DNA of 64,000 nucleotides from Escherichia phage UE-S5b: sequence record PP301341.1; one strand, written 5' to 3'. Below the pieces are notes generated by a model that saw only the letters and a program-made list of their open reading frames with translations, was not told the DNA's origin and made no database searches. This document shows positions 3,528 to 64,000 of this stretch, in pieces. Position 1 is the first letter of the stretch. Each line of letters opens with the position of its first letter. The translations under genes were made by a program, and so were the position numbers.

Positions 3528-3772
3528 AAAGAAAAGTAGAGTTAGTACCTAACTGGAAAAGNTGNTGGAANTGGGCATCCATTCANATTAGTACNNTTGG
3601 TTTANTTCTATTNTCNGCTNTAGATATNATCCAACCAATGGTGACAGGATTACCTCGTCACATCTTGGAAGATATTCCCCATGGTTCCAATATTGCAATC
3701 GCACTGTTTGCCTTAAACATCATAGGCAGATTAATACGATTCCGACCAAAGGAAGATTCACATGAAAGCTAA
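3512..3772 (+). CDS. putative small holin (two predicted TM segments); sequence contains multiple N
   Basis: ATG at 3512 preceded by GGGAGA; basic N-terminus MVRRLKRK then two hydrophobic stretches (second is SNIAIALFALNIIGRLI); overlaps the endolysin start by 11 nt. Ambiguous bases at 3540-3630 make the frame uncertain. Confidence 0.35.
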   Translation: MVRRLKRKVELVPNWKXXWXWASIXISXXGLXLXXAXDXIQPMVTGLPRHILEDIPHGSNIAIALFALNIIGRLIRFRPKEDSHES

Positions 3773-4397: not shown

Positions 4398-4884
4398 AGG
4401 TTGGCCTTATCTTCTGGTGGTGGTCCTTGGGGCCACCATTTACTTTTGGGGCAATTCCAATGGGCAGTCTACTGTTCAAAAGAAATGGGATGCCCAAAAG
4501 GTCGAAGACCAAAAGGCAACGCAAAAATTACAGGACAAATACAATGCTCTCCAAAGAAACCATAGTTATGAAGTCGGGTTACTCACTTCCCGGTTGCAGA
4601 CGGCTGAGAGTAATTACGCAAGCGAGCTTGCTCGCGTTAGCAGTGATTACGACAGCCGGATGCAACAGTCTGAAAGACGAGCATCGGTATATAAACGTCA
4701 AGCCGAAGCCGGAACCCTTGAGTGCAGAAGTCTTGCAAGCCATGCAGCCAGACTCGACAATAGTCTTGAAGAAGGCAGACGTTTGGTTGAAGAACTCCGG
4801 GCAACTGTTAGACTCCGTGACAGCCAACTAATTGAGTTGGGTAAACAGATTCAGGCTGACCGTAAACTTTTTGAACAGGAATAA
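4378..4884 (+). CDS. i-spanin (Rz-like): N-terminal TM anchor plus periplasmic coiled coil
   Basis: ATG 4378 preceded by GGAGG; [26 protein letters not shown] helix followed by a charged coiled-coil region; directly follows the endolysin. Confidence 0.65.
4568..4831 (+). CDS. o-spanin (Rz1-like lipoprotein) embedded in the +1 frame of the i-spanin gene
   Basis: +1 frame ORF inside 4378-4884; hydrophobic signal followed by lipobox-like ITTAGC; proline-rich short mature part; classic embedded Rz/Rz1 architecture. Confidence 0.55.
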   Translation: MKSGYSLPGCRRLRVITQASLLALAVITTAGCNSLKDEHRYINVKPKPEPLSAEVLQAMQPDSTIVLKKADVWLKNSGQLLDSVTAN

Positions 4885-7170: not shown

Positions 7171-7515
7171 ATGAGTAAAGAATCAACAATCGCAGGACTG
7201 GAACATCGACTGGAAGCTGCTAAAGGTGCAGTTGCACACGCAGAAGATGTACGTAAACTTTTGGAGTATCCACTGTTCCGTAAAGTAATTCTTCGTCAGT
7301 TCTGTGTGGAAGATTGTGCACGTTACGTGCAGGAGTCTGGTGACCCACTGCTTGAACCTAATAACCGTGCAGATGCATTGAACATGGCTCAAGCTGCTGG
7401 TCACTTACGTCGTTGGCTCGACCTCGCCATTCGTATGGGNGAAAANGAAGCTGACGTTATTCTNCAGGTAGAAGAAGAACTCGANGCAGTTCGTGCTGAA
7501 CCTGAAGANGAATAA
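7171..7515 (+). CDS. hypothetical head-assembly protein (N4 gp58-like position)
   Basis: 114 aa ORF between portal and scaffold-like gene; 3' end contains N. Confidence 0.45.
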   Translation: MSKESTIAGLEHRLEAAKGAVAHAEDVRKLLEYPLFRKVILRQFCVEDCARYVQESGDPLLEPNNRADALNMAQAAGHLRRWLDLAIRMXEXEADVIXQVEEELXAVRAEPEXE

Positions 7516-16762: not shown

Positions 16763-19700
16763 TTGAACAGGAAACATGCTATGTCAACATTTGACCGTCT
16801 GGCAGGTTTCGCAGACAGCATCACTAATGCTAAGCAAGTCGATGTCTCTACTGCAACCTCTCAGAAGCAAGCTGCACAAGGGCAAAGCCCTTCCCAATTA
16901 ACCCCAGAGAATGCTTACAATCTCCAAACTGGTCGTGTAGGTAATCTTGGAATCGGTGCATTCGAACCAGGTTCACTTCAGGCAGATTTCACGCAAGCCT
17001 CCCCATTAGAAATTCTTAATAAATACGGTAATGAGCAAGGTCTACAGATTCTTAATAGCCGGGCTAATGCTGCTGATGCTGTACGTCAGGACTTATCTAA
17101 ACAACGTACTAACGCAGAAGCATTTGGTGATACTCTTTCTGGTGTTGGTCTTGGTGTTGCTAATACCCTTGGGGGCATTGCTGCTCTTGGCACAGGTCTG
17201 GTCAATGATAATGCCGGGGCATCCATTGCTTCCGGTATGGATTGGCTGAATGAAGGGGTACACAATCTACAGTCTGATGCTCTGAATGCTACCCGTAAGG
17301 TTGTTCAGAATCAGAACCAGATTTCTGCACAAAAGAACCAGAAACTCTACGAAGAAGACATTAAAAATGGAGAGAGCAGTTTGGTTGCCTCTCTGTCTCG
17401 TATTGGTCGTGATGCTTTTGATTCTGTTGCTAATACGCTTGATAATGGTATGGCTGCTACTGATGGGCTGAGTGAAGGTGTTGGTTCTCTCTTTACCGGT
17501 GGTCCATTAATTCGTGGTGTATCTGCACTCGGTAAAGTAATGGTAGGTGGTGATAAAGCTGTTAAGGGTATTACCTTAGCTGCTGAGTTAGGTTCACGTC
17601 CTGCACAGGTTGCATTGTCTGCTGGTCGTGTTGCTGCACCTGCTATTGCAATTGGTGGTATGGAAGCTGGTGGTGCATACCAACAGACTGCTTCCGAAAT
17701 CATGAAGATGTCCCATCAAGAATTGGCAAGTAAGTCTCCTGTTTATCAACAGCATATCGCTGATGGTTTATCTCCTGATGAAGCACGTCGCCAAACTGCA
17801 TCTGAAACGGGTATCATTGCTGCTGGCTTAACTGCTCCGGTTGCTGCTGCTACTGGTCCTCTGGTATCCAAATTTGAACTTAACCCACTTAAGGTAGGTT
17901 CGCTGGCTGGTGCTGGTTCTAACATGCTACGTGAAACAGTAGAAGAAGGTATTCAGTCTGGTACAAGTCAGTTTGCACAGAACAAGGCAATTCAGGGTAA
18001 TGTAGATGCTAAGCGTGATTTGCTTAAAGGTGTCGGTGAGCAAGCAGGTCTTGGTGCACTCTACGGCTTCGGTAGTGCTGGTGTTGCTCAGGCTCCAGGT
18101 ACAACTGTTAAAGCTGTTGGTGCTTCTGCTGGGCCTGCTTTACGTACTACTCTGGCTGGTGCTTCTCTGGTTGGTAGTGCATTAGCAAAAGCTGCCTCTC
18201 CTATTACTAACATCCTGGTTCAGCGTGGCGAAGAAGTTGCTAAGCGTAATGAACAAGCTTCCCCTGTATCTGATGCTACGGTTAATGCTGCTGCACAAGA
18301 AGCTACTGCTCAAGCAGAACAAGCACAAGCAACTGTACAAGAAGCAGTAGATGCAATGGATATTTCTCCTGAAGAGAAAGCTGCTGCTACTCAGTATGCT
18401 GCTGACTTAACTCAGGCAATGAAATTTGACCCAGTAGAACTGGAACAAGCTAACCCAGCAATCCGTGAAGCTGTTTCTGGTTCCACTAACCGTGTTGAAG
18501 CTATTCAGAAGATGGCTGACCTGGTTAATACTGCCGAAGACCCTAACGTTCAAATGGAAGCTGCAATCCAGATGTATGACAACATCATGTCTATGGATAG
18601 CTTCATTAACCGTGATCCTGGTGCTTTAGCTAATCTGGAACAGGGTTCTCCTGCTGCTAATATTGTTGACCAGTTCTCCGGCCTGATGGCTAACGTTCAG
18701 AATACACCAAAGGTACTTCGTGCATTCCGTGCCATCCATTCTATGATTCAGGAACAGGCTGAAGCAGGTAAACTGAAAGCTACCGAAGAAGCTAACCAAG
18801 CCCAAGCAAACAACATTGCTATGGCTGCTGATATGTCTCCAGAAGTACTGGATGCAGACTCAGTGAACATGGTTCTGAAACATGCAAGTGAAGGTAAGAT
18901 TACACTGGGGAATCGTCAGCGTGCTGCCCTGCAATCTGCTGCTGCTCTATTGCAAGGAGCACGAGAATTTGACGCTAAAGCAGAAGAACTAGGCTTACGT
19001 CCTCAAGACATTGTTAGTAAACAGATTAAAACCGACGAGTCTCGTTCTAATGAAGGTCAGTACTCTGCGTTGCAACATGCTAAACGCATTCGTTCTGCGT
19101 ACAACTCTGGTAACTTCGATTTGGCTTCCGCTTACCTCGACGACTTTATGAAGTTCGCCCAGCACATGCAGAATAAGGTCGGAGCGTTGAATGAGCATCT
19201 GATTTCTGGGAATGCGGATAAGAATAAGTCTGTCCATTATCAGGCTCTTACTCCCTCCCGTGAATGGGTACGTAGTCGTACTGGTCTTGGTGTCAATCCG
19301 TATGATACCAAGTCGGTTAAGTTTGCCCAGCAAGTAGGACTGGAGGCCAAAACCGTAGCTGATATTGCTAACGCACTTGCTACGGCTTACCCGGAGCTTA
19401 ATGTTTCTCATGTGAAGGTTACTCCATTAGATTCACGTCTGGACAAGCCTGCTGCCCAGGTAGTTAAAGAGTTCCGTCAAGGTGGTCTTGATGCCACTCA
19501 GTCTCAACAGACCAATGAACCAGTGAATCAGGTTGATGAAACTCCTGCACCAGCGCAAGAGACTACTACTACTGTACAGCCTAAAGCTAAACCAGTGGTA
19601 GAAAATAAGACTGTTCCTGTTAAAGAGGCTAGTTCAAAAGCAGAAGAAGTCTCTACTACTAAGTCTGAAACAGTAGATGCTACCCTCACCAATGAGGATA

Positions 19701-22700
19701 CCACTCAAAAAGTAGCTGAAACTAAAACGGAAATGGAAACAGTTTTCCCTGTCTATAACAATGACAAGACACCGAACCAGTTCCTGAAATCATTTACCCT
19801 GCCGGAAGAACCTAAGTCTCGCACCATTGGTTCTGAATCCCCTTTGACTGATATTAAGCAAGCACTGTCTTCTACTGCACGCTTTGAAGCATTCACTCAA
19901 AAAGAAAATAACGCTCTCACAAGTGATGTGATTAAGCGTTATCAGGACTTAATGGGCTTTGGTGAAACTCTGAAGACTACTCTGTCTGATCGTCTGGCTA
20001 AGTTTCTTGCTAATAAGAACGTTGGTAAACGCTTTGCAGAAGGCACAGAGGCTAACCGTTGGGTAGGTGGTAAGTTACTTAATATCGTAGAGAAAGACGG
20101 AGACACCTTTAAGTTCAATGACCAGTTGTTAGAGACTGCTGTACTTGCTGGTCTGCAATGGCGACTGACTGCTACACAGAATGCTGCTGTTAAAGACATG
20201 AAAGATGTAGCTGCTATTACTGGAGTAGAAGCATCCTTGTTACCTGAAGGTATCCTGGCTGAATTTGAGAATGCTCAGACTCTGGTTGAAGCTACTAACT
20301 CACTGGCTCAAAAGATTGAATCTTACTGGGGATTGAATCGTAATCCTAATGCACCACTGGGTTATACCAAAGGTATTCCAATGGCAATGGCTACAGAGAT
20401 TCTGTCTTCTCTCATTGAGATGGGTGAAGTTAAAGAGTCTATGCTTGATGTGTCTGAGATTGACCCAGACTCTAATAAGACCGTCGGTCTGTATACCATT
20501 GAGAAGCTGGATGATAACGATGCCATTAACAAGTTCCCTACTGCTATCGAGGAAGCTGTTCTCGTAGAACCAGAAGAGAAAATGTACTTTGGTGATGATA
20601 TTCCTTCCGTGGCTCAAACTCAGTTACGTAACCCTGCTGTTAAGAATACCCCAGAGCAGAAAGCTGCTCTTAAAGCAGAACAGGCTACCGAGTTCCGTGT
20701 ACACATGCCGATGGTTAACTTCTATGAAGCATTAGGTCGTGACAACATTCTGGAACTGATGGGTGCTGGTACTCTTAATCCTGAACTGCTGAACGTGAAC
20801 ACTGCTAAGTCACTGGAGGGTAAAAACCTGTCAGTGTCTATGGCATATGATTCCCTGTTCGGTGTAATCAACCAGTTACAGGAACAGGAGAATGGTCTGG
20901 ATACGCCTATTCACTATGGTTACAACATGACCCGTGTAGGTCGTATGCAGATGTTAGGTAAGAACAACCCACAGTCCAGCAAGCTGGTTCGTGAAGCAAT
21001 TCTGCCAACCTTCTCTACTATCGACTTAAGTAATGAAAACAGTCAGACGTTCTCTGATTTCCAGTTAGGTCTGTCTCAGGCATTAGGTATCAAGGTTCAT
21101 AATATGTCCCGTGAAGCTATGTCTGAAAAACTGACCAAAGCTCTGGAAGGTAATTTGAAACCTGCTGTTGATATGATGGTTGAGTTTGATAAGTCCGGGC
21201 ACTTACCAGCCGATGCAGTAGATATTCTTAAGACATCTCTGGGTGGTGATAAATCATTCGTAGCTCTTATGGCTCTTATGGAGTATGCCCGTTACCTGAA
21301 CAGTGATGACCGTGCCAACTTTAATACCCCACTGTACGTTGAAGCCGATGGTGTAACCAACGGACCAATCAACGCAATGGTATTAATGACTGGTGGTAAG
21401 TTCACTTCAGACTGGATTAAGAATACTGCTAAAGGTGGTCTGTTCTTCGGTAAAGCTGGTAAGACTATGAATGAACATCGTTCACAGGATGACAGTGTTG
21501 ACCTGTATGAAGCATCTACCAATGGTCTGCAACAAGCACTTAATGAGTTACGTACTACTTACCGTAACAACGTTCCGGTTATGAACCAAATGAATCATCT
21601 TCAGAAGTTAATGGACCTGTTTATTAAAGACTTTAACCTGAATGAAGACGGTACTCTGGACCTGAAACGTGGTATCGCTAAAAACCCACTGACCATTACC
21701 ATCTATGGTTCAGGTGCTCGTGGTATTGCTGGCAAGATGGTTAGTGCAATTACTGACACCATCTATGAACGATTCAGTGATGTTCTGCAAGCTCGTGCTG
21801 CTGACCCTAGTATTTCCCCAGCTATGGCAATGTTTGGTAAGGAGGCTGCGTCTGAGGCTGATGCTCAGGCTATGCTGGATACTTTCCTTACTTCTATGGA
21901 AGCACTGACTGGTAATGTTCCAGTTATGCGTAAAGGTGAATTGTCTATTCAACAGGTAGAAGGTGCTCTGACTGGTAAGTTAGACCCTCAGAAGTTTACC
22001 GTATCGGGTAATGCCCTGAAGAACTTACAAGAGAACATGCTTCACCTGTTCGTTGAACCAATGCGTACTGGTATCCGGAATACTGTTGGGGAAGGTCTGA
22101 TGCATTCTACTGAGAACTTGCAGAAGGCTACCCAGATTCAGTCTTTGGTTCTACAAGACATGTTCCAACAAGCAGTACAGGCTAAGCTGGCAGAAAAAGA
22201 AAAAGACCCAACCTGGAAGAAGGGTGATTTCTTAACACAGAAAGAACTGAATGAAATTCAGGAATCATTGTCTCCACTGGCTCCAATGATTGAGACTGGT
22301 TCACAGACTTTCTATATTGCTGGTAGTGAGAATACTGATGTTGCTAACCAGGTACTGGCTACCAACTTAGATGACCGTATGCGTGTGCCAATGAGCATCT
22401 ATGCTCCTTCTCAGGCAGGCGTTGCAGGTATTCCATTTATGACCATTGGCACTGGTGATGGCATGATGATGCAGACCCTTTCTACTATGAAAGGTGCTCC
22501 GAAGAATACCCTGAAAATCTTTGATGGTATGAACATTGGTATCAACAACATCACTGATGCAAGTCGTAAAGCTAACGAGGCTGTATACACTTCCTGGCAG
22601 GGTAACCCTATCAAGAATGTTTATGAGTCTTTTACTAAGTTCATGAAGAACGTAGACTTCAGCAAACTATCTGATGAAACCAAACAGGCTATCGCTAAAT

Positions 22701-25700
22701 CTGCTCTGGAATATGACCAGCGTGAAGGTGCTACCGATGACCTGTTACGTGTTGGTGCTGAACAGATTGAACGTAACCTGCGTAATATTGCTCTGGGTGT
22801 AGATATTCGTCACAAAGTAATGAACCAGGTACAGACTACTGTTGACCAGATGGCTGCTGTTGGTGCTCCTTATGTGAACAACGGTAAAATCTCTCTGGAA
22901 GGTCTGACCGTAGACCAACAAGTAGCTAAGCTAAATGAACTGTTCGATGCTGAATTAAACAAACGTCGTGATGCAGTACGTGCTGCTAAAGTAGAACCAG
23001 TGAAAGAAGTGCCAGCAATGGAACAGGTTGGTCGTGTACTGAAGTCTGGTGTACGCCTACTGTCTAATACTGCTATCTCTAAGCTGGCTAAAGAGATGTC
23101 TCCGGAACAGCAAGCAGTACTGAAAGAAGTACAGAAATCCCTTGCTGCTAAAGACTATAAGGTTGTTTACGGTACACCTTCCCAACTGGATGCTTATGCT
23201 ATTGAGAAGAATATTACTCGCCCAGCACCAGAAGATATTGAAGCTGCTGAAGCTGGTAATGCGTATGGTTGGACTAACTTTGAAGATAAGACCATCTACT
23301 TAGTTACCCCTTCCTTAGAGACTCTGGTTCATGAATTGGTGCATGCTTCTACTTTTGAATCTGTACTGGCTCACTATGAGGGTACTCCTAATGAAGCGGT
23401 CCAGAACATTGAAGACCTGATGAACCAGTTCCGTGCTCTGGATGTTAAGGATGAATCCCCGGCAGTTCGGGAAGCATATGCAGATGCTCTTAATACTATT
23501 AACGGTCATTTATCTAATGGCTTTATTGAGCCAGCAATGGCTAAAGCTGCTGCACTGAATGAGTACATGGCATGGGGTTTAACCAACCGTGAACTGATTA
23601 GTAAGCAGAAGAAAACCACTGCACTTAAGACTATGGTTCAGGCTGTATATGAAGCAATTAAACGTCTGGTATTCGGGCGTAAGAAAGCACCAGCTAATGC
23701 AGATGATATGTTCTCTGGCTTACTGTTTAACTCGTCCGTAGTTATGCGTGGGCAAGCTCCTACTGCTGCTGTAGCCAAAGATACTACTCTGTTCCATAAC
23801 AAAACGTATGGTGACAATACTCGTCTGGAAGAGCTAGGGAAAACCTTCGATAAACTGATTACTGACTACATTGGTTCTGAACCAGTACAGCAAGTAATTC
23901 GTAAAGGTAAGTTCTCTGATGCAGTGGTTAATGCGACTAAAGTAACTCGTGATGTTCAGGCTCATGGCTTCACTATGAATATGCAGGAACAACGTCTCTT
24001 TACTAACATTGTTGCTGCTCTGGCTACTGAGGCTGCTATTAATCCTGCTGCTCTGGCTCGTGCGCAGGAATACTACACACATGTTACTAAGAACCTGACC
24101 GTTGAGTCATTCATGNCTGACCCAGATAGTACTAACCCTGCTGACCGTTACTATGCACAGCAGAAGTTCGATACCATCATGGGTGCTAACAACATTGAGT
24201 TTGATTCACAAGGTCGTTCCTCCTTACTGCCTACCTTTATTGGTCTGGCGATGGTAAGTGAAGAGGTACGTAAAGTGCTGGCTGATATTCCAGTTATGAA
24301 AGTAGACAAGAAATCTGGCAATACCGCTGATGCAATGCTGACTAACATCGGTACTGCTGCAATGGCTAGTCTGAATGCTCGTGTAGCAGGAGATACTAAA
24401 GCTACCAACGTACAGGAAGGTATGGATGCACTGGCTCAGACAATCATGCAGACCAGTCTTAATGCACAATCCTTCTATGATTCCGTTGCTACTCCTACGG
24501 GTAATGCTATTGATCGTGCTAACCAGTATCTGGTGGACTCTATTGATGTACTGTCTACCCGTGCTTTAGAAGGTGCTCGTGAAGTTGCAGCTAATACCAA
24601 GAACCCGTTGGTTAAAGGTGCTGCCCATGCTGCACAATTAATAGCTGCTATTGCTACAGAGAAGAATGGTGCAATCGTAGCCGAAGGTGTTATGGCTGCA
24701 ATGAACCAGGGTAAGGTATGGCAACCTTTCCATGACCTGGTTAATGACTTAACTGGTCGTACTAAGAGCAATGCTTCTGTATATGATTTGATTAAAGCAG
24801 TGCGTGCACAGGTACAGGCTGACCGTCAACAGTTCCGTGAACATCTGCCCACCACTATTGCATCTAAGTTCAGCCGTAAGCTTACTAATGATGAGTGGAA
24901 AGCAATGCATACCGGTATGGGTAAAACCGACTTAGCTGTTCTGCGTGACACTATGTCTCTGGGTGAAATTCGTGACTTGCTGACTGACCAAAAGATTGTT
25001 GACCGTGAAGTGAATAAGCTGGAAGCAGATTTGCAGAAACAAGCAGGACGTAACTGGCCTTTGATTAGCCGTAAATCTAAGCAACTGGCTCAGTACATGA
25101 TTAATGGCACAGTTGGTAATAACTTGCTGCGTAATGCTACTGCAATCTCTCGTATGCTGGGTGAACGACAGGCTGCACGTTCTACTGTAGACGTAGCTCA
25201 ACTGGATAAACTGATTACTCTGTATGCACTGGAAGCAATGAGTAAGACTGACCGTGAGATGTTATCTTCACTGGCTCAATCAGAGATTGAAGGCATGGAC
25301 TTCGCTACTTCTTATCTGGTTGGTCAGCGTAAAGATGAAATGGCTAAAGCCAAATCTGATACTCGTGCAACTCTGAACCAGTACAAAGGGTATATTCCTG
25401 GTGAGACTAAACAGGGTGTTAACTTGATTGTTGCTGAAGATAGTCAGTTTGCTGATTTGATTGAGAAGTCCTATGTACGTCTGGGTACTTATCAGGGTAG
25501 CTCTGCTAATCGTGGTCCAGCACGTAGCTACTACTTTGCACCGGTACAGGCACAGGCTCCATTCTCGCAAGGTATCTTACAGAACGTTCGCAATACTGCT
25601 GGTGGTGTAGACCTTGGTACAGGCTTTACGATGGGTACAATGGTAGCTGGTCGTATCACTGACAAGCCTTCTGTAGACCGTATCACTAAAGCACTGGCTC

Positions 25701-27133
25701 GCGGTGAACGTGGTAATGAACCACTGCTGCCTGTATATGATGATAAAGGCAATGTGGTTGCTTATGAGCAATCTATTGACCCTAACATGCTGAAGCACAT
25801 TGAGGGTGAGAACCATCTCGCTCGTGCAATCGGTGTATGGCGTGGTCGTCAGGTAGAGGAAGCTAAGGCTCAGCGTTTCAACGATATGCTGATTGAGAAC
25901 CTGCATAGCATGTATAAAAACGACATTAAAATGTCTGCCTCTAACAAGTCACAGTACGTTAACCTTCTTGGTTCTAAACTGGACCCAGTAACTGCTGATG
26001 CCCTTAAGCTGATGAACAGTGAAACTCGTCAGAAAGCAGAAAGTCTGTTTGGTCCTGGTGAGTTGTGGGTACGTCGTGACATGCTGAATGATGCACTGGG
26101 CTATCGTGCAGCTTCCGTAGGTGATGCCTGGTCTGGCAATTCTCGTTGGTCACCAGAAACACTGGATACCTTCAAGAAAGCTATGTTGGGTGTATTCGGC
26201 AACCGTGCTTATAAGTATGTAATGGGTGGTGAGAACCTGGTTCAAAACTTAGTTAAAGAAGCCAAAACTCTGATTGTAGTTAAGTCAGTAGTTGTTCCTG
26301 CTGTTAACTTCCTGGCTAACCTTTACCAGATGGTTGGTCGTGGTGTACCTGTTAAGAACATTGCTAAGAGCATTCCACAGAAGACTGCTGAGATTAACCA
26401 GTACCTGAAATCTCGTCTGCGTCAGGTAGATGCAGAAGCAGANTTACGTGCAGCTACTAACCCGAACCAGATTCGTAAGCTTAAGGCTGAAATTCAGTCC
26501 ATCACTGATAGTCATAAGCGTATGAGTATCTGGCCTCTGTTAGAAGCTGGTGAGTTTTCTTCAATTGCAGATGCTGGTATTGGACGAGATGACATCCTGA
26601 TTACTGAAGGTAAACTTCACGAATACATGGATAAACTGGCTGATAAGTTACCTAAGTCTGTACGTAATGCTGGACGTTATGCCCTTATCACCAAGGATAC
26701 TGCTTTATTCCAGGGTATCCAGAAGACGGTTGAGTACTCTGACTTTATTGCTAAAGCAATCATCTATGATGATTTGACTCAGCGTAAAGGTAAGACTCGT
26801 GAAGAAGCACTTGGACGTGTAACGGAAGAGTTCATTAACTATGACCGTCTGCCTGGTCGCTTCCGTGGGTATATGGAAAGTGTTGGTCTTATGTGGTTCT
26901 ATAACTTTAAGATTCGTTCTGCAAAAATTGCAGTATCCATGATTCGTAACAACCCGGTACACGCAGCTATGGCTATGTTGGCTCCAACTCCTACCATGTT
27001 TGGTAATGTTGGTTTACCTATTCAGGACAACATCTTCAGTATTGCTGCACAAGGCAATCTCGGTTACTCCTGGGGCTTCGGTCAGGGACTTCGTGCCCAT
27101 AACCTTAACCCTTGGCTCAATCTAGCTAACTAA
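16763..27133 (+). CDS. virion-encapsidated RNA polymerase (vRNAP, N4 gp50-like)
   Basis: Single 3456 aa ORF, the hallmark giant protein of N4-like phages; last gene of the late operon; contains T7-RNAP-like motif B-like segment (PLTITIYGSG). Three isolated N. Confidence 0.9.
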   Translation: MNRKHAMSTFDRLAGFADSITNAKQVDVSTATSQKQAAQGQSPSQLTPENAYNLQTGRVGNLGIGAFEPGSLQADFTQASPLEILNKYGNEQGLQILNSRANAADAVRQDLSKQRTNAEAFGDTLSGVGLGVANTLGGIAALGTGLVNDNAGASIASGMDWLNEGVHNLQSDALNATRKVVQNQNQISAQKNQKLYEEDIKNGESSLVASLSRIGRDAFDSVANTLDNGMAATDGLSEGVGSLFTGGPLIRGVSALGKVMVGGDKAVKGITLAAELGSRPAQVALSAGRVAAPAIAIGGMEAGGAYQQTASEIMKMSHQELASKSPVYQQHIADGLSPDEARRQTASETGIIAAGLTAPVAAATGPLVSKFELNPLKVGSLAGAGSNMLRETVEEGIQSGTSQFAQNKAIQGNVDAKRDLLKGVGEQAGLGALYGFGSAGVAQAPGTTVKAVGASAGPALRTTLAGASLVGSALAKAASPITNILVQRGEEVAKRNEQASPVSDATVNAAAQEATAQAEQAQATVQEAVDAMDISPEEKAAATQYAADLTQAMKFDPVELEQANPAIREAVSGSTNRVEAIQKMADLVNTAEDPNVQMEAAIQMYDNIMSMDSFINRDPGALANLEQGSPAANIVDQFSGLMANVQNTPKVLRAFRAIHSMIQEQAEAGKLKATEEANQAQANNIAMAADMSPEVLDADSVNMVLKHASEGKITLGNRQRAALQSAAALLQGAREFDAKAEELGLRPQDIVSKQIKTDESRSNEGQYSALQHAKRIRSAYNSGNFDLASAYLDDFMKFAQHMQNKVGALNEHLISGNADKNKSVHYQALTPSREWVRSRTGLGVNPYDTKSVKFAQQVGLEAKTVADIANALATAYPELNVSHVKVTPLDSRLDKPAAQVVKEFRQGGLDATQSQQTNEPVNQVDETPAPAQETTTTVQPKAKPVVENKTVPVKEASSKAEEVSTTKSETVDATLTNEDTTQKVAETKTEMETVFPVYNNDKTPNQFLKSFTLPEEPKSRTIGSESPLTDIKQALSSTARFEAFTQKENNALTSDVIKRYQDLMGFGETLKTTLSDRLAKFLANKNVGKRFAEGTEANRWVGGKLLNIVEKDGDTFKFNDQLLETAVLAGLQWRLTATQNAAVKDMKDVAAITGVEASLLPEGILAEFENAQTLVEATNSLAQKIESYWGLNRNPNAPLGYTKGIPMAMATEILSSLIEMGEVKESMLDVSEIDPDSNKTVGLYTIEKLDDNDAINKFPTAIEEAVLVEPEEKMYFGDDIPSVAQTQLRNPAVKNTPEQKAALKAEQATEFRVHMPMVNFYEALGRDNILELMGAGTLNPELLNVNTAKSLEGKNLSVSMAYDSLFGVINQLQEQENGLDTPIHYGYNMTRVGRMQMLGKNNPQSSKLVREAILPTFSTIDLSNENSQTFSDFQLGLSQALGIKVHNMSREAMSEKLTKALEGNLKPAVDMMVEFDKSGHLPADAVDILKTSLGGDKSFVALMALMEYARYLNSDDRANFNTPLYVEADGVTNGPINAMVLMTGGKFTSDWIKNTAKGGLFFGKAGKTMNEHRSQDDSVDLYEASTNGLQQALNELRTTYRNNVPVMNQMNHLQKLMDLFIKDFNLNEDGTLDLKRGIAKNPLTITIYGSGARGIAGKMVSAITDTIYERFSDVLQARAADPSISPAMAMFGKEAASEADAQAMLDTFLTSMEALTGNVPVMRKGELSIQQVEGALTGKLDPQKFTVSGNALKNLQENMLHLFVEPMRTGIRNTVGEGLMHSTENLQKATQIQSLVLQDMFQQAVQAKLAEKEKDPTWKKGDFLTQKELNEIQESLSPLAPMIETGSQTFYIAGSENTDVANQVLATNLDDRMRVPMSIYAPSQAGVAGIPFMTIGTGDGMMMQTLSTMKGAPKNTLKIFDGMNIGINNITDASRKANEAVYTSWQGNPIKNVYESFTKFMKNVDFSKLSDETKQAIAKSALEYDQREGATDDLLRVGAEQIERNLRNIALGVDIRHKVMNQVQTTVDQMAAVGAPYVNNGKISLEGLTVDQQVAKLNELFDAELNKRRDAVRAAKVEPVKEVPAMEQVGRVLKSGVRLLSNTAISKLAKEMSPEQQAVLKEVQKSLAAKDYKVVYGTPSQLDAYAIEKNITRPAPEDIEAAEAGNAYGWTNFEDKTIYLVTPSLETLVHELVHASTFESVLAHYEGTPNEAVQNIEDLMNQFRALDVKDESPAVREAYADALNTINGHLSNGFIEPAMAKAAALNEYMAWGLTNRELISKQKKTTALKTMVQAVYEAIKRLVFGRKKAPANADDMFSGLLFNSSVVMRGQAPTAAVAKDTTLFHNKTYGDNTRLEELGKTFDKLITDYIGSEPVQQVIRKGKFSDAVVNATKVTRDVQAHGFTMNMQEQRLFTNIVAALATEAAINPAALARAQEYYTHVTKNLTVESFMXDPDSTNPADRYYAQQKFDTIMGANNIEFDSQGRSSLLPTFIGLAMVSEEVRKVLADIPVMKVDKKSGNTADAMLTNIGTAAMASLNARVAGDTKATNVQEGMDALAQTIMQTSLNAQSFYDSVATPTGNAIDRANQYLVDSIDVLSTRALEGAREVAANTKNPLVKGAAHAAQLIAAIATEKNGAIVAEGVMAAMNQGKVWQPFHDLVNDLTGRTKSNASVYDLIKAVRAQVQADRQQFREHLPTTIASKFSRKLTNDEWKAMHTGMGKTDLAVLRDTMSLGEIRDLLTDQKIVDREVNKLEADLQKQAGRNWPLISRKSKQLAQYMINGTVGNNLLRNATAISRMLGERQAARSTVDVAQLDKLITLYALEAMSKTDREMLSSLAQSEIEGMDFATSYLVGQRKDEMAKAKSDTRATLNQYKGYIPGETKQGVNLIVAEDSQFADLIEKSYVRLGTYQGSSANRGPARSYYFAPVQAQAPFSQGILQNVRNTAGGVDLGTGFTMGTMVAGRITDKPSVDRITKALARGERGNEPLLPVYDDKGNVVAYEQSIDPNMLKHIEGENHLARAIGVWRGRQVEEAKAQRFNDMLIENLHSMYKNDIKMSASNKSQYVNLLGSKLDPVTADALKLMNSETRQKAESLFGPGELWVRRDMLNDALGYRAASVGDAWSGNSRWSPETLDTFKKAMLGVFGNRAYKYVMGGENLVQNLVKEAKTLIVVKSVVVPAVNFLANLYQMVGRGVPVKNIAKSIPQKTAEINQYLKSRLRQVDAEAXLRAATNPNQIRKLKAEIQSITDSHKRMSIWPLLEAGEFSSIADAGIGRDDILITEGKLHEYMDKLADKLPKSVRNAGRYALITKDTALFQGIQKTVEYSDFIAKAIIYDDLTQRKGKTREEALGRVTEEFINYDRLPGRFRGYMESVGLMWFYNFKIRSAKIAVSMIRNNPVHAAMAMLAPTPTMFGNVGLPIQDNIFSIAAQGNLGYSWGFGQGLRAHNLNPWLNLAN

Positions 27134-28376: not shown

Positions 28377-28620
28377 TAGTACTATTTACCCATAGCTGGG
28401 AGGCTTTTGGTTCTTACCACGAAGACAGTCCACGCTGACNAGNCTTGGGATTGATAGTCCCGTTCCTGTGGTAATTACTCAGGCTAGGATTTAAGGAGTT
28501 CCTATTCTCCAGCGAAATTCCCGTCGANGGGAATAACAATACAATAGCAGNCACTGGACTGTCTTACCAGTGTTGTCTTTAGAGTGCNATGCAATCAGGA
28601 CTATGTTACTGCTGAATGGG

Positions 28621-48648: not shown

Positions 48649-49589
48649 TCAGTAATAGTCTCACCAGGAATTAACTTACGGAATTGGATAAAGTGAAGCA
48701 GGTTACCTGAGTACAGATTCCCTTCTTTATCCATGGATGTAACACCTTGTTCCCATGTAACTGGGTTCATGTTATTTACATACTTCTCACCAAGGTTCAT
48801 AGGTGTAGCCTGATGTTCCGTTGGGGAAGCATGAATAGGTTGGTTTTCCACTAACTTAGCGAATAAGCCAAGGTCTTCCTCGATAGTAGATGGTCGTCCT
48901 TCGAAGTTGTTATAGGAAGCACGAGCACAGCGTGCAGCACTTACTTTGAGAAGTAGTCCATGCACTTCTGCATCACTTGGTTCATCGCGTGTAACTCGAT
49001 TGCGTTTGCAGAAATTGTAAGCCCCAACACGGTCAATATGAGCAATNTANGGCANATGCCATTGCCCATATGGTAATGCTCTNGGTGTNCTTTCTTCCTG
49101 TGCCTTACGCATTGCTTGAGCCAGTTCACGAATCTCTGGTTGTGCATCTTTGTGGTCACGCAGTCCATAGAAATTAGCCCAGCTGGTTGAAGTTACCACT
49201 ACACGAATATGCGTGAATGGTTCCAGAATACGGTTAACAATCTGCTTATGTACTTGCCCACGTCGTAGCTGTTCTGCATACACAGCAGCAGCAGATGCAG
49301 CGTTATCCCAGATAAACTTAGCATCCTCAATCTCCATAGGAGTGAGTTCTTCTTCTGCTTGCATACCTTTCTGGTTCTTGCCCCAGTGACTAGGCATCAC
49401 TGGTTCATTACGAACTTGTTCGATGAACTTAGCCGTGGGAATAGCACGACTGCTTGANGCATTACGGTTGAATACACGGTGNGTCATAAACTCACTGTGA
49501 ATGAATCGGGGATAAACCAATTCAAAGGTAGTAATACGAGTTCCTGTTTCTGGGTGAACGGAATCTGCAATGACAGTTGCCTTAATCAT
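48645..49589 (-). CDS. thyX: flavin-dependent thymidylate synthase (ThyX-like)
   Basis: ThyX-type motif HRVFNRN.SSSR (RHR-x7-S like); 314 aa; several N. Confidence 0.6.
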   Translation of the reverse strand: MIKATVIADSVHPETGTRITTFELVYPRFIHSEFMXHRVFNRNXSSSRAIPTAKFIEQVRNEPVMPSHWGKNQKGMQAEEELTPMEIEDAKFIWDNAASAAAVYAEQLRRGQVHKQIVNRILEPFTHIRVVVTSTSWANFYGLRDHKDAQPEIRELAQAMRKAQEEXTXRALPYGQWHXXXIAHIDRVGAYNFCKRNRVTRDEPSDAEVHGLLLKVSAARCARASYNNFEGRPSTIEEDLGLFAKLVENQPIHASPTEHQATPMNLGEKYVNNMNPVTWEQGVTSMDKEGNLYSGNLLHFIQFRKLIPGETITE

Positions 49590-54615: not shown

Positions 54616-54801
54616 TTAGTTACCTTTTAACTCGTTGAGTTGAAGTACTCCAGTAGGGGTTAATGACCACCCAAGACCAGCATTGAACTGCACTAAGCCC
54701 AGTTTCTTAAGAGACTGTGCGGTTTTATTATTGCGGTTGCTGGTGGCAGAACCACCTTGAACCATACGAAGGAAGATTGCTTGGGACTGGGTTAATTTCA
54801 C
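54616..54801 (-). CDS. hypothetical small protein
   Basis: 61 aa ORF. Confidence 0.4.
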   Translation of the reverse strand: MKLTQSQAIFLRMVQGGSATSNRNNKTAQSLKKLGLVQFNAGLGWSLTPTGVLQLNELKGN

Positions 54802-55058
54802 TCATCTTCTCCTTCATCTGGGAGTGGTGATAAATCTACACATAAATGCTCAAAGCGTTTTTCTAAGACAGCAATTCTCTTTTGATAAAATGACAGCAGT
54901 TCAGGAAGTATTCTTGTACGAGCTTGCGGTCCTAAATCCGTACCATTGAATGATACTTTCACCATATGTGGTGACTTCTTCAAACTAGCTAATTGCTGTC
55001 GGTTGTCGTTGTATTCTTCGTACAGTTTCTCAACCAAACGTAGATTGTGGATATTCAT
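54798..55058 (-). CDS. hypothetical small protein
   Basis: 86 aa ORF. Confidence 0.4.
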   Translation of the reverse strand: MNIHNLRLVEKLYEEYNDNRQQLASLKKSPHMVKVSFNGTDLGPQARTRILPELLSFYQKRIAVLEKRFEHLCVDLSPLPDEGEDE

Positions 55059-55348: not shown

Positions 55349-56182
55349 TTATTCTACAACAGTAATAGCGATGGTTACATCGACCTTACCGTTGGTAACT
55401 ACTACAGAAGTAGCTTCACCAGCAGCCACTGGTTTAACCGTCAATACGTTACCGGCAATGGTAGCCGTAGCACGGGCAGAATCTGGGGTAGTCTTAATAG
55501 ACAAAGTACCAGCAGATGAACCAACAGGCATAGCAGCAATGGTTACAGTCTTACCGGCAGCAGTATCATCAGCAACAGACAGAGCCAGTGAATCAGGAGT
55601 AGCTACCAGTGAGCTTGCTTCATAGTAGCCTACTGCCAGCAACGACGTATCTTCTACAGTGGTTCCATTGGCATCAGTAACAATCACTTTATAAGTACCA
55701 GCAGAAGCAGCGGTTACGTTATTAAGAGTCAACGTTGCAGTAGCAGCAGATGCGTTATCACCAGAATCAATATCAGTGAATACTGCACCAGCGGTATCGG
55801 CTTTAAATTGCCATTTATAAGTAAACGGTGCTTTACCACCTGCTACATCAACATGCCAGTTAATATCTTCGCCTTCGATAGCAGAGATTACACGAGGCAG
55901 TTTAGTAGCAACAGTCAGTCGTGGAGTAGCTTTCATGTCAATAGAGATGGCTTGCATATCCACGATGTTGTTAGGCCAGAAGCCTGCTTCAGCAGGGTTT
56001 TTAGCAGAACGTTTATACAGCAGATTACGTACACCGTGAAAGATAACTAAACTATCCGGGTAAGTGGCATCTGGATGCACAAAAGTACCTACCTCTACGG
56101 AACCACCTGGGATAGAACCCCCTGCATCCAGTACAGTTGCAACATTGGTGGTTTTGTTAAAACCTACTTTTAAAGTTGGCAT
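55349..56182 (-). CDS. capsid decoration protein with Ig-like domains (N4 gp17-like)
   Basis: ATG at 56182 preceded by GAGGAAA; Thr/Ala/Val-rich beta-sandwich-like repeats; located after RNAP II genes as gp17 is in N4. The first 43 aa of the track ORF are rejected. Confidence 0.55.
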   Translation of the reverse strand: MPTLKVGFNKTTNVATVLDAGGSIPGGSVEVGTFVHPDATYPDSLVIFHGVRNLLYKRSAKNPAEAGFWPNNIVDMQAISIDMKATPRLTVATKLPRVISAIEGEDINWHVDVAGGKAPFTYKWQFKADTAGAVFTDIDSGDNASAATATLTLNNVTAASAGTYKVIVTDANGTTVEDTSLLAVGYYEASSLVATPDSLALSVADDTAAGKTVTIAAMPVGSSAGTLSIKTTPDSARATATIAGNVLTVKPVAAGEATSVVVTNGKVDVTIAITVVE

Positions 56183-56229
56183 ATGAATTTCCTCATAAGT
56201 AAATAGCAGGATTAGTATACATGACATGT

Positions 56230-56258
56230 AAAAAAATAAACCCTCCGTTAAGAGGGTT
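56230..56258 (-). terminator. rho-independent terminator
   Basis: AACCCTC-CGTTAA-GAGGGTT with flanking A/T runs. Confidence 0.5.
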
Positions 56259-56454
56259 AGTTGTTTACACAGTAGATAGCAAAAGCTATCCATCCTGCCA
56301 TTACAAAGCATCCTAGTGAGTATGCTCCATAGTAGCAGTAAGCAAACTTAGACTTGTGGGCACGAACTATCGTAGCCAGAATCAGTACAGATAAAACTAT
56401 CAGTATTAGCTGAGAGATTACTTCAAAATTGATAAGCATAGTTGCTACCTCCAA
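56257..56454 (-). CDS. small membrane protein
   Basis: 65 aa, two hydrophobic helices. Confidence 0.4.
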   Translation of the reverse strand: MEVATMLINFEVISQLILIVLSVLILATIVRAHKSKFAYCYYGAYSLGCFVMAGWIAFAIYCVNN

Positions 56455-56497
56455 GCAAAAAATAAAGCCCCACTCCCGAAGGAATGAGGCTAGTTTA

Positions 56498-57715
56498 TTA
56501 ACTTAATGCATAATCTGTTTCTAGAATGTCTTGCCAGAGGCTGTCATCCAGCTTACCAGCAGAGAACTCTTGTCCCAGTACTTGAGACAGAATGAAGCCC
56601 AGTAAGTCACTCTTAGCAATGTCAGACAGAATCTGATTGTACTGACGACGCAGGTCATTACCATAGTTAGGGTGGCAACGGAAGCAATCATGTACAGTCA
56701 TTACAGGGAATGGTTTCTTAGGCATAGTGTCGATCATATCTGCTACTACTTGACGGTCTACCAATGCAATAGTATTCGGGTCAAGGAAGTCTAGGATAGA
56801 TAGCGACAGGAATCCTGACCTTTCATAATGATTCCAGATTTCCATAGTCTTCTCTTGGTTCCCCTCAATAACGGGGTATTCACTTGGCCCGATATCGCAC
56901 AGTTCCCGTACATAGGCAACCAGTTTAGGGTCGAAGTTACAACGACGCAGCATCTCACGTACTACCATCCCATCAATAGAGTGAGTGATGTTAGCAGAGA
57001 GCATACGGGTCTTCTCTTCAGTACCCTGAACCATACGAGTGATGTCAAATGGTTTACCCAAGAAGTTAACAGTCTGTACTTCAAGAACCATGACTTTAAT
57101 GACAGCATGGAAGTTGTCAGGGAGTACCCATATGTAACGGTTAGCATCCGGGTTACCACATTGCAGTAAGAACTTGTTAAGTGCCCAAGGACCACTTGCA
57201 ACTGTTTCCATTACATTTTCAAAAGTCTTGAGACGGATACCTTCCCCGAATACTTCTTTAGGTTTGGCTTCTGAACCGTAGAATGCAGTCATAACTGCCT
57301 GCTTGGTATCACTACGTTTAATACGGGATGCTTCACCAAGGATGTCCAGCATCTTGTGATATATAACTGTATAAGCATCACGTCGTAATGGCTTACCATT
57401 CTCTCCCATGTAATTAACTACGTTACACAGTTCAGCAGCAGAGCGGTCACCAGTCAGGCAGGCCAGTAACTGCAAGCCTGATGATGTAGCATCCAGGGCT
57501 ACGGCATATCCGATAGGCTTACCTGCTTTCATATCTTTCCATGCGTTTATGCCAGCATAGAATAGTGCAGATTCCTCAGCTTCATCTACCAGATTAAGCA
57601 AGTTAGCTTCATTCTCATCGAACCAAGCAATACGCTCATTCCAGGTCTTTTTATCCAGACCATAGTTATTGGCGATATCTACTTTCAGGTATTCACGAGC
57701 GGTTAACAGTTGCAT
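56498..57715 (-). CDS. RNA polymerase II large (catalytic) subunit, T7-like single-subunit RNAP C-terminal half (N4 gp16-like)
   Basis: 405 aa; T7 RNAP motif A-like ALDATSSGLQ, motif B-like K..VMTAFYGS, motif C-like VHDCF. Confidence 0.8.
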   Translation of the reverse strand: MQLLTAREYLKVDIANNYGLDKKTWNERIAWFDENEANLLNLVDEAEESALFYAGINAWKDMKAGKPIGYAVALDATSSGLQLLACLTGDRSAAELCNVVNYMGENGKPLRRDAYTVIYHKMLDILGEASRIKRSDTKQAVMTAFYGSEAKPKEVFGEGIRLKTFENVMETVASGPWALNKFLLQCGNPDANRYIWVLPDNFHAVIKVMVLEVQTVNFLGKPFDITRMVQGTEEKTRMLSANITHSIDGMVVREMLRRCNFDPKLVAYVRELCDIGPSEYPVIEGNQEKTMEIWNHYERSGFLSLSILDFLDPNTIALVDRQVVADMIDTMPKKPFPVMTVHDCFRCHPNYGNDLRRQYNQILSDIAKSDLLGFILSQVLGQEFSAGKLDDSLWQDILETDYALS

Positions 57716-57772
57716 TTTATGTTCCTTTTGCTTCTTGGCTCCTCACTATGAAGAGCCTGCTTATTGGATGGA

Positions 57773-58012
57773 TTAGCCAGCATTAAATGATGACAATACT
57801 ATTCCTGGTTCCACACCTTCTGTGGCAATACCCAGGTACTCGACGTGCACTTTATCAGGGGAAGAACACCAAGCGGAAGATAGATTCCATTCTCCGTCTG
57901 GATTAATAAGGCGAGCTTCTTCCTTAGTTGTAGTAGCTACCACTGCGGAATCGTATGTATCCCATCCTGTATTCTCTTCCTGGCTAATGAGCCATAGTTT
58001 TAACCTACTCAT
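57773..58012 (-). CDS. hypothetical small protein
   Basis: 79 aa ORF between the two RNAP II genes. Confidence 0.35.
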   Translation of the reverse strand: MSRLKLWLISQEENTGWDTYDSAVVATTTKEEARLINPDGEWNLSSAWCSSPDKVHVEYLGIATEGVEPGIVLSSFNAG

Positions 58013-58823
58013 CGTTTACTAACTCCTTATCAGCGAACTCCAGTACAGCTTTGTTGTAGCTGGTTCCCTGATAGTTGATGTGATAGCCCTGAGCGTAAGT
58101 ACGCCCACGTTTGTCATATTTGTGACCCAGTGAGAAGTTATTACCTTCTTTGGTCACTAACTCCATTACTTCCTTAGCAGTACGGCTGTACTTCTCAAAG
58201 GCTTTAACACGTTTCTCATATTCCTGACGGGTTTCACCCTCTTTGGGNTTATCCATATTAGGACGAGAGTCTTTTACATAGTTAGCAACGTCCCAGTTNA
58301 TNCTTAGACGNTGATTATTCATACGGTTGATGTGATCAAGACAGACATCCATCTCATGATGGTTCTTCTTGAGGATGATACTTCCCCTGCTCTCGTAGTA
58401 ACCTGTATCACGGTTACACAGAACAGGCTTAGGAGCACTTACGATAGGTAATGGATACTGGAATGCTTCCAGTTCCATCTGAACATCTTCACTAATCTCG
58501 TAGATAACACCGAACTTGTCGATGGTAGGGTCATAGTTGAAGCAGTCATTCTCTGCCATCTTATACAGACAGTCAGCGATGTACTGAGCATCATCTGAAT
58601 GGCTCATAAGAGAGCCAATCATAGTCTGAAGGTCAGCACGTTTATGTAGGGCAATCTGCACCATTGCATCAATGAGCAGCTTATAATCAATTTCCAAATA
58701 GGCAGCGAATGCCTTAAAGTCAATTTCTTCGGAGTCCTCAAATTCCTTCCTCATGCGAGGGAGTAATTGATTTTTGTTGAAAAGAATTTCGAGTTGCTTC
58801 TGATGTTCAATGGATGAGTACAT
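58005..58823 (-). CDS. RNA polymerase II small subunit, T7-like RNAP N-terminal half (N4 gp15-like)
   Basis: 272 aa, immediately upstream of the catalytic subunit; AGGAGA Shine-Dalgarno; size matches N4 gp15; contains several N. Confidence 0.6.
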   Translation of the reverse strand: MYSSIEHQKQLEILFNKNQLLPRMRKEFEDSEEIDFKAFAAYLEIDYKLLIDAMVQIALHKRADLQTMIGSLMSHSDDAQYIADCLYKMAENDCFNYDPTIDKFGVIYEISEDVQMELEAFQYPLPIVSAPKPVLCNRDTGYYESRGSIILKKNHHEMDVCLDHINRMNNXRLXXNWDVANYVKDSRPNMDXPKEGETRQEYEKRVKAFEKYSRTAKEVMELVTKEGNNFSLGHKYDKRGRTYAQGYHINYQGTSYNKAVLEFADKELVNDE

Positions 58824-58854
58824 CGCTTATTCTCCTAAATGTGATTAATAACCA

Positions 58855-58869
58855 AAAGCTGCGGAGCAG
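58855..58869 (-). promoter_or_regulatory. vRNAP-type early promoter hairpin (N4 P-like)
   Basis: Template (+) strand CCAAAAG-AGCTGC-GGA-GCAGCT: 6 bp stem, 3 nt GGA loop, 32 nt upstream of the RNAP II small-subunit start. Confidence 0.6.
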
Positions 58870-58876
58870 CTATTAC

Positions 58877-62721: not shown

Positions 62722-63106
62722 TTAGAAAGTCAGTTTACGAGCATATTTATTCTCGTCTGCTGGGATGTCAGCAGCCTCTGCTTTCACACGACGAAGTTGA
62801 ACTTGCAGGTTAATGATACCTTCTTCACCTGGTTCCAGGTTCTGAGCATATTCAATTAACTGTTCCAACAGGTCGTTCTGTGCACAACGCATAGCACGGA
62901 AGTCAGCATTGCTGCTATTAGTAGGCAGCGGCTCCTGAGTATCCAAAGGAATACCAGTAGGCAATGAGATGAATTTCTCATCATCAGAGCCTTCATTAGC
63001 TACATAACCAATGTTCAGCCAGAACTGAGCTTTAGGCTTATCAGTTTTAGCAGTAGAAGTAGCAGCAGCGTTAGATTGACCGAAAGTGAATTTTTGAATA
63101 GACATT
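62722..63106 (-). CDS. hypothetical early protein
   Basis: ATG at 63106 preceded by GGAGAG; track start at 63204 would give a weak 33 aa extension. Confidence 0.45.
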
Positions 63107-63217
63107 TTGTACTCTCCAGATAAATGATTGTTTGATTTATGGGTTTGTCCGTCGGTGACTAAACCCAAGAAAAGACTTAAGATTTCAATGATTAGTGGAT
63201 GCATTTAAATCATCCAT

Positions 63218-63234
63218 AAGACGCGGAGCGTCTT
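63218..63234 (-). promoter_or_regulatory. vRNAP-type early promoter hairpin (N4 P-like)
   Basis: Template (+) strand CCATAAG-ACGC-GGA-GCGTCTT: 7 bp stem, 3 nt GGA loop, upstream of gene 62722-63106. Confidence 0.6.
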
Positions 63235-63534: not shown

Positions 63535-63858
63535 TTAGTTTTTAGTCAGGATGTCAATTACTTTTGAATATTCTGCGTTATAGATACGAGCGTTTTCTTT
63601 ATCCTTACAGAATTCTTCAATACTTTTCTTACGCAGAGTCTCAGTCATAGCTGTCTCCTCTGCCAGTTTATTAACAAAGGTATGCATTTCTAATTTAGTA
63701 CGGATGGCTTGTTTCTCTGCCATAGTACTTACATATGAATTAAGCATACCTACTGCTTTAGTTGCTGTACCGAATGTATCTGCAACAGTAGTAGCAGCTG
63801 AGTTAACAGTACCAAGTAAAGTTCCTGCGGTCATACGTACAGTAGCTTGAGTAGTCAT
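63535..63858 (-). CDS. hypothetical early protein
   Basis: 107 aa ORF; no clear Shine-Dalgarno. Confidence 0.4.
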   Translation of the reverse strand: MTTQATVRMTAGTLLGTVNSAATTVADTFGTATKAVGMLNSYVSTMAEKQAIRTKLEMHTFVNKLAEETAMTETLRKKSIEEFCKDKENARIYNAEYSKVIDILTKN

Positions 63859-63900
63859 GATGATAGCTCCAATAGTTGATGATAGGACGACATGTCCATA

Positions 63901-63915
63901 ACATGCGGAGCATGT
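63901..63915 (-). promoter_or_regulatory. vRNAP-type early promoter hairpin (N4 P-like)
   Basis: Template (+) strand CCATAAC-ATGC-GGA-GCATGT: 6 bp stem, 3 nt GGA loop, 43 nt upstream of gene 63535-63858. Confidence 0.55.
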
Positions 63916-64000
63916 GTAACGTGTAAGGTGGGGTAGGGTAGTGGCTACACCGTCAACATACCGGGGGGGNTNGTTGAGTGTAAGGGTGTAGCCCCAGCCA

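Follow-up and report, generated by a model that had tools for sequence, protein, structure and literature searches.

The locus analyzed here is very probably (at a probability of about 0.93) the early operon for the middle-gene transcriptase of an N4-like coliphage, in which a split RNA polymerase II (RNAPII) lies behind a hairpin promoter of the type used by the virion RNA polymerase (vRNAP). A two-subunit RNAPII behind a vRNAP hairpin promoter is the textbook N4 system. The window, which is the whole stretch of 64,000 nucleotides of Escherichia phage UE-S5b (PP301341.1) that was analyzed, contains the three ORFs listed in a preliminary description of this DNA (272, 79 and 405 aa), all on the minus strand and all where they had been placed. 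That description took the two large ORFs for a split, two-subunit T7-like RNAPII, and the reading is borne out: the ORFs match the two chains of N4 RNAPII and are collinear halves of one polymerase. The coordinates of these and the related features are summarized in Table 1.

Table 1 Features of the RNAPII locus and of the associated early and virion genes in the window
Feature	Coordinates	Strand	Basis or remarks
RNAPII large catalytic subunit, N4 gp16/RNAP2 orthologue, 405 aa (palm, fingers)	56498..57715	-	PDB, PHROG and Pfam matches
Motif A region ALDATSSGLQ (aa 73-82 of 405 aa ORF)	57470..57499	-	Protein scan
Motif B tyrosine-glycine FYGS (aa 145-148 of 405 aa ORF)	57272..57283	-	Protein scan and 6DT7_B alignment
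Motif C VHDCF (aa 341-345 of 405 aa ORF)	56681..56695	-	Protein scan and 6DT7_B alignment
Intrinsic terminator directly after RNAP2 gene	56456..56491	-	11-pair stem, TTCG loop, T-run; strong
9-bp RNA stem-loop in RNAP2 gene leader, upstream of its ribosome-binding site	57737..57757	-	RNA folding
79 aa accessory ORF (phrog_5444, function unknown)	57773..58012	-	ATG overlaps RNAP1 stop by 8 nt
RNAPII small subunit, N4 gp15/RNAP1 orthologue, 272 aa (N-terminal domain, thumb, DxxGR)	58005..58823	-	PDB and PHROG matches
DxxGR motif (DKRGR, aa 237-241 of small subunit)	58101..58115	-	Motif scan of protein
vRNAP-type early promoter hairpin, P3-like	58852..58871	-	Stem 58866-58871/58857-58862, loop TCC 58863-58865, predicted +1 58853
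gp2 orthologue	62722..63204	-	68% identity to N4 gp2, E 7e-84
Second vRNAP-type hairpin, P2-like, upstream of gp2-like gene	63214..63234	-	Loop at 63227
gp1 orthologue	63535..63858	-	67% identity to N4 gp1, E 9e-52
Third vRNAP-type hairpin, P1-like, upstream of gp1-like gene	63896..63915	-	Loop at 63909
Giant virion RNA polymerase, gp50-like, 3456 aa	16763..27133	+	PDB vRNAP structures; expected reader of hairpin promoters

The region shares 98.7% DNA identity with Escherichia phages PBM-3 and PBM-2 and 87-94% with numerous further phages of the genus Gamaleyavirus (Schitoviridae, Enquatrovirinae), and by sequence the window is that of a Gamaleyavirus, an N4-like member of the Schitoviridae. 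In GenBank records of the PBM-3/PBM-2 type both large ORFs already carry RNAP1/RNAP2 labels, with the PBM-3 counterpart of the 272 aa ORF annotated as RNAP1, and the split RNAPII and hairpin promoter of UE-S5b are already known and annotated in near-identical phages. The RNAP1 and RNAP2 genes of PBM-3, PBM-2, IME11, St11Ph5, Bp4 and ECBP1 are effectively the same as those of UE-S5b (the RNAP proteins of PBM-3 are 99% identical, and PBM-3 has the same 79 aa ORF), and the strains vary only in the slot separating the two genes, which is occupied by the 79 aa ORF in some and by an HNH endonuclease or an unrelated ORF of 53 aa in others.

The 405 aa protein aligns from end to end with N4 gp16 (aa 1-405 on residues 1-404 of PDB 6DT7_B, E 4.5e-190; identity 68%); further matches are to phrog_2051 (E 6e-174) and, in Pfam, to PF00940 (E 6e-14). 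All three catalytic motifs for which it had been singled out (ALDATSSGLQ, FYGS and VHDCF) were recovered, and the motif A region is the same in N4 gp16 except for one residue downstream. The 272 aa protein aligns with N4 gp15 (aa 3-269 on residues 2-268 of PDB 6DT7_A, E 2e-118; identity 66%) and with phrog_2166, 'N4-like RNA polymerase' (E 2e-113); its DxxGR motif agrees with the N4 review, which locates DX2GR in gp15 (PMC4496689). The Pfam search gave no match for this ORF; the small subunit is, by these comparisons, too divergent for PF00940, and its homology rests on PHROGs and PDB. Its proposed role as the separate N-terminal subunit agrees with the full-length gp15 match, the DxxGR motif and the position on the profile described below. 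A lack of similarity to the N-terminal region of T7-like polymerases, which had been named as the result that would speak against this role, was looked for, and the similarity is clear. Four ambiguous bases (58248, 58299, 58302 and 58311) give four X residues in the 272 aa ORF and leave its frame intact, and an AGGAGA ribosome-binding site precedes its ATG.

That the 272 and 405 aa proteins are halves of one enzyme follows from profile collinearity and from one-piece alignment across their junction. On the single-subunit RNAP reference profile phrog_414 (816 positions), the C-terminus of the 272 aa protein covers positions 353-424 and the N-terminus of the 405 aa protein covers positions 429-596, which are collinear and do not overlap. 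When the two proteins were concatenated, with the junction at residue 272/273, and used as a tblastn query, the alignments spanned the junction as one piece on single-chain RNAPs (query residues 109-533 in cyanophage 9515-10a, 125-531 in Pseudomonas phage LUZ100 and 190-524 in Synechococcus phage S-SBP1). At least 80% of the concatenated query was covered in 362 phage records, and in every such record listed the halves are separate pieces. Judging from the spans in this search, the gap ranges across the family between about 35 nt and over 1.2 kb, and in some roseophages and rhizobiophages the two subunit genes lie apart.

The N4 RNAPII system has been characterized both biochemically and structurally (PMC4496689; PDB 6DT7). 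The RNAPII of N4 (gp15 and gp16; PDB 6DT7/6DT8/6DTA) is encoded by the same two genes in the same order as in UE-S5b, with nearly the same lengths (269 and 404 aa in N4; 272 and 405 aa in UE-S5b) and with the DxxGR, A, B and C motifs in common. The neighborhood is also shared: a gp14-like gene precedes the pair and a gene like gp17, for capsid decoration, follows it. The gp1, gp2 and vRNAP genes are present in both phages. The differences are a sequence divergence of about a third and the spacing of the subunit genes, which are separated by a 47-nt non-coding spacer in N4 and by 289 nt in UE-S5b, which include the 79 aa ORF and are measured from where the RNAP1 stop codon starts. Compared with T7 RNA polymerase (single-subunit family, PF00940), the catalytic fold and motifs are the same and the ORF pair is collinear with one T7-type chain, whereas the UE-S5b enzyme is split in two and much smaller (677 versus 883 aa), its N-terminal and thumb domains being truncated. 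N4 RNAPII, unlike T7 RNAP, depends on cofactors and a single-stranded template.

The hairpin in front of the 272 aa ORF lies just outside the span first described (56498-58823). The site reads AGCTGC-TCC-GCAGCT-TTTGG, in which a stem of 6 bp closes a 3-nt loop, and its folding energy as single-stranded DNA is -5.7 kcal/mol; the predicted start is 30 nt upstream of the ATG of the 272 aa ORF. Promoters of N4 vRNAP are defined by a hairpin with a 3-nt loop centered at -11, a G:C loop-closing pair and an A-tract ruler, and the enzyme recognizes -11 A/G, -10G, -8G and +1C on the template strand (PMC4496689); the same review gives the loop a 5' G and a 3' A, and a stem of 5-7 bp was taken as a further criterion. 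The template strand of the UE-S5b site carries -12A, -11G, -10G, -9C, -8G, AAAA at -4 to -1 and +1C and thus has all of the published determinants. From the hairpin through +1, the sequence is invariant in N4, PBM-3, UE-S5a and St11Ph5, and over this stretch the site that precedes gp15 in N4 is the same, while its flanks differ. This N4 counterpart, at 4551, is presumably P3, as suggested by the count and location of promoters in the review (PMC4496689).

Two sister sites were found when the extended promoter consensus GCTCCGCNNNTTWTGG was scanned across the whole window. It occurs three times (0.03 occurrences expected by chance), and every copy precedes early genes on the minus strand; relaxing the consensus to two mismatches across the window gave only chance-level extras (five found versus three expected). 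All three sites read -12A, -11G, -10G, -9C, -8G and +1C on the template strand, and they lie at the injected genome end, co-oriented with the gp15-, gp2- and gp1-like genes. The layout in N4 is the same: the left 11 kb of its genome contains exactly three matches to the motif, at 93, 562 and 4551, upstream of gp1, gp2 and gp15. The UE-S5b sites share with N4 P1-P3 the stem of 5-7 bp, the 3-nt loop, the -11 purine, -10G, -8G, +1C and the A-rich ruler. They differ in the P1 loop, for which the template strand reads GAA in N4 and GGA at the P1-like site, and in the stems, whose sequences at the P1-like and P2-like sites are not those of N4. The genes behind these two sites encode orthologues of gp1 and gp2 (Table 1). 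In N4, gp1 is an RNAPII cofactor and gp2 is an ssDNA-binding cofactor that recruits RNAPII. Over its 22 nt the P2-like site does not differ from the sequence put forward as P2 in Klebsiella phage KP8, and the same KP8 analysis locates an early promoter close before the RNAP1 gene, with one small ORF between them in the KP8 record (PMC6950046); the GenBank record of KP8 carries an 'early promoter' feature upstream of the RNAP1 gene.

The expected reader of these hairpins is encoded in the same window. The 3456 aa protein is 67% identical to N4 gp50, and its central part matches the solved N4 vRNAP structures at about 1700 bits. Residue numbers were assigned by aligning the protein with N4 gp50, and five catalytic residues served to validate them. 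Lys114, Arg119, Trp129, Asp901 and Arg904, which contact bases, and the backbone contacts Lys849 and Lys850 are all conserved in UE-S5b; Lys267 of the β-intercalating hairpin is replaced by Asn, unlike in N4. It is well supported by these sequence comparisons that the P3-like hairpin would be read by the injected vRNAP and not by RNAPII. The preliminary description, which had RNAPII preceded by a hairpin promoter, was therefore right that the hairpin is real, carries the promoter determinants and lies before the 272 aa ORF; if RNAPII was meant as the enzyme that reads it, that part does not stand, as the predicted reader is the injected vRNAP.

Every sequence-level feature that defines N4-type RNAPII and vRNAP hairpin promoters is found in UE-S5b, and the locus would be expected to operate as in N4. 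A giant RNA polymerase packaged in the virion would be injected with the DNA at infection, and supercoiling by host gyrase would extrude the small DNA hairpin at 58857..58871. The vRNAP would recognize bases of the template-strand loop and stem and, to judge from N4 biochemistry, start at about 58853, with initiation dependent on supercoiling and on SSB. One transcript would cover the genes for the 272, 79 and 405 aa proteins; early transcription probably ends at 56456..56491, because the terminator there lies directly 3' of the 405 aa ORF. The 272 and 405 aa proteins would then associate, as the N4 subunits do biochemically, into a heterodimer that amounts to one minimal T7-type polymerase, split so that DxxGR and thumb lie on one side and palm and fingers on the other. 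Together with the gp1-like and gp2-like cofactors, this heterodimer would act at AT-rich promoters on single-stranded DNA bound by gp2 and so transcribe the middle genes. By analogy with N4 biochemistry, UE-S5b is expected to share the need for cofactors, the timing and the rifampicin-resistant activity of the heterodimer on gp2-bound ssDNA (PMC4496689). UE-S5b thus fits the full three-polymerase program of N4, with vRNAP acting at the hairpin promoters, RNAPII with gp1 and gp2 on the middle genes and host RNAP on the late genes; beyond correct annotation the significance of the locus is small.

The gap between the subunit genes is variable in content. It is an empty 47-nt spacer in N4, and holds an unrelated 53 aa ORF in St11Ph5, unrelated ORFs of 98 and 55 aa in KP8, an HNH homing endonuclease in UE-S5a and an HNH endonuclease with three small ORFs in Burkholderia phage HN03; the ORFs of KP8 and St11Ph5 were tested against the 79 aa ORF and are not homologous to it. 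The 79 aa ORF itself is present in 13 Gamaleyavirus records, compared with about 60 records that match the locus, and its other homologues belong to unrelated phages: a Vibrio phage of podovirus-like genome size (48 kb), phages of Rhizobium and Acinetobacter, jumbo Erwinia phages and even a Marseillevirus. An AF2 model of the protein is confident (pLDDT 91). The model matched no characterized structure, a Foldseek search of BFVD with it returned uncharacterized viral proteins alone, and the ORF has no match in Pfam; the PADLOC defence models matched neither the ORF nor its neighbors. A search of PDB sequences with the family profile gave no stretch above threshold, and a match to a flagellin-hook protein, being below threshold, was disregarded as spurious.

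Three other readings of the locus were weighed against an early operon with a vRNAP promoter and a split RNAPII. One is that the P3-like hairpin is mainly a terminator or an RNA stability element and that the RNAPII genes are reached by read-through from the P2-like promoter. The hairpin begins 5 nt past the stop codon of an upstream 86 aa ORF, and a generic terminator scan picks out AGCTGCTCCGCAGCT with TTTTGGTTATT behind it as terminator-like, scoring the hairpin with its TTTT as a weak site. The stem is short for a terminator, however (6 bp), and the T-run has four bases only, whereas every base-specific vRNAP determinant is present and +1C stands at the correct ruler distance. In addition, the hairpin through +1 is unchanged from N4 despite differing flanks and a protein identity of only about 67%, and in both UE-S5b and N4 the extended motif occurs solely upstream of gp1, gp2 and gp15. 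We therefore regard this reading as very unlikely, although the P3-like hairpin may have a dual or alternative role. It is also improbable, and to a slightly greater degree, that RNAPII has in the 79 aa protein a third subunit or a regulator peculiar to this lineage, co-produced by virtue of its position. The ORF is probably translationally coupled to RNAP1, as its 8-nt overlap suggests, and it encodes a conserved family with a confident fold, but it is missing from N4 and from most Gamaleyaviruses, its place is taken by unrelated ORFs or HNH endonucleases in relatives and some of its homologues are in phage records outside the genome size range of N4-like phages. The scattered distribution of the ORF argues against a polymerase role, and in the crystallized N4 RNAPII (6DT7) the matches are to two subunit chains only, A and B. 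The 79 aa ORF is best taken for an accessory cassette whose slot varies in content, and not for a polymerase component.

The third reading, that the 272 and 405 aa ORFs are the decaying and non-functional remains of a single-chain T7-type RNAP broken by an insertion, is scarcely credible. A foreign ORF does lie at the break point, and in some relatives HNH endonucleases are found there; both ORFs, however, are full length relative to the crystallized and enzymatically characterized N4 subunits, the catalytic motifs are all intact, each subunit gene has its own ribosome-binding site and the split arrangement recurs widely, being seen in all those listed among the 362 phage records covered to at least 80%. 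Conservation of the sequences effectively refutes decay and leaves a functional, split RNAPII as the preferred reading.

The junction of the RNAPII genes holds HNH homing endonucleases in at least two distant lineages of the Schitoviridae and unrelated small ORFs in others. Insertion of a homing endonuclease has been proposed as the origin of other split phage genes. We would entertain only as an outside chance that mobile cassettes land repeatedly at this junction and that a free-standing homing endonuclease, by inserting there, made or maintains the ancestral split of a single-chain T7-type polymerase, or that the 79 aa protein modulates RNAPII. Two by-products of the analysis are a catalogue in which the inter-subunit gap stands out as a hot spot of unrelated cassettes, homing endonucleases among them, and a widespread, confidently folded and uncharacterized family of 79 aa phage proteins.

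The leader of the RNAP2 gene contains a further hairpin, a 9-bp RNA stem-loop (-14 kcal/mol, z -2.8). It was considered as a fourth vRNAP promoter and rejected, since its template-strand loop would be CTA, without -10G and the -11 purine. In St11Ph5, the stem shows a compensatory change from U:A to C:G, and N4, UE-S5a and KP8 have smaller hairpins at the same position.

The space between the genes for the two RNA polymerase subunits, RNAP1 (272 aa, N4 gp15 orthologue) and RNAP2 (405 aa, N4 gp16 orthologue), varies across Schitoviridae as a slot for cassettes; its implied size is as little as ∼35 nt in some members and exceeds 1.2 kb in others. The slot is empty in N4 and is occupied in UE-S5b by an ORF of 79 aa; St11Ph5 and KP8 carry small, unrelated ORFs at this site, and UE-S5a (Gamaleyavirus) and Burkholderia phage HN03 carry HNH homing endonucleases. 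The 79 aa protein belongs to a family (phrog_5444) that is widely distributed among unrelated phages and is also found in a giant virus. The family displays an invariant tryptophan and a conserved SFNAG segment at the C-terminal end. The predicted fold of the protein is confident (pLDDT of 91), with no structural relative among characterized structures. Coordinates are summarized in the table below.

Features of the RNAP1–RNAP2 region and of the remainder of the window
Feature	Position	Strand	Remarks
Inter-subunit gap	57716..58004		Between RNAP1 and RNAP2 genes
79 aa ORF	57773..58012	-	Family phrog_5444
RNA stem-loop, 9 bp	57737..57757	-	5' of RNAP2 ribosome-binding site; z -2.8
320 aa ORF	55349..56311	-	Mechanical call
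Terminator-like hairpin	56239..56258		Upstream of internal MPTLKVGF... start
86 aa ORF	54798..55058	-	Shared with UE-S5a
vRNAP	16763..27133	+	Virion RNA polymerase
P1-like hairpin to window end	63896..64000		∼90 nt
Ambiguous bases (examples)	3562-3628, 7440-7509, 28440-28588, 49047-49089, 58248-58311, 63970, 63972		Apparent masking

In St11Ph5, a U:A pair of the stem-loop in the RNAP2 leader is replaced by C:G, a compensatory change; N4, UE-S5a and KP8 have shorter hairpins of differing sequence at the same position, and none is present there in Burkholderia phage HN03. A role as a promoter of the type read by vRNAP was rejected because the loop bases are wrong, and the stem-loop could instead be an element for mRNA processing, stability or translation. 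In vRNAP itself, the base-specific contacts of the N4 enzyme are all conserved; the sole change among the N4 residues reported for promoter-hairpin handling is at residue 1238, where Lys267 of the N4 β-intercalating hairpin is replaced by Asn.

Downstream of RNAP2, the 320 aa ORF is probably over-extended. The annotation of relatives places an 834-nt capsid-decoration gene (Hoc-like, gp17) at this locus, the start of which corresponds to the internal methionine of MPTLKVGF.... The 86 aa ORF is missing from PBM-3, which is otherwise 98.7% identical and in which ORFs of 186 and 189 nt adjoin at this point with nothing between them; the early/middle region thus differs here between strains by a small indel.

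Ambiguous bases (N) occur at 64 positions of the window in small scattered clusters, four of them within the RNAP1 ORF, where they give rise to X residues; they look like sequence-quality masking rather than biology. The distance from the P1-like hairpin to the end of the window is comparable to that in N4, in which P1 lies ∼95 nt from the left terminus, which suggests that the window stops at, or very close to, the physical end of the genome, the one injected first. The window appears to run in the reverse orientation to the N4 reference.
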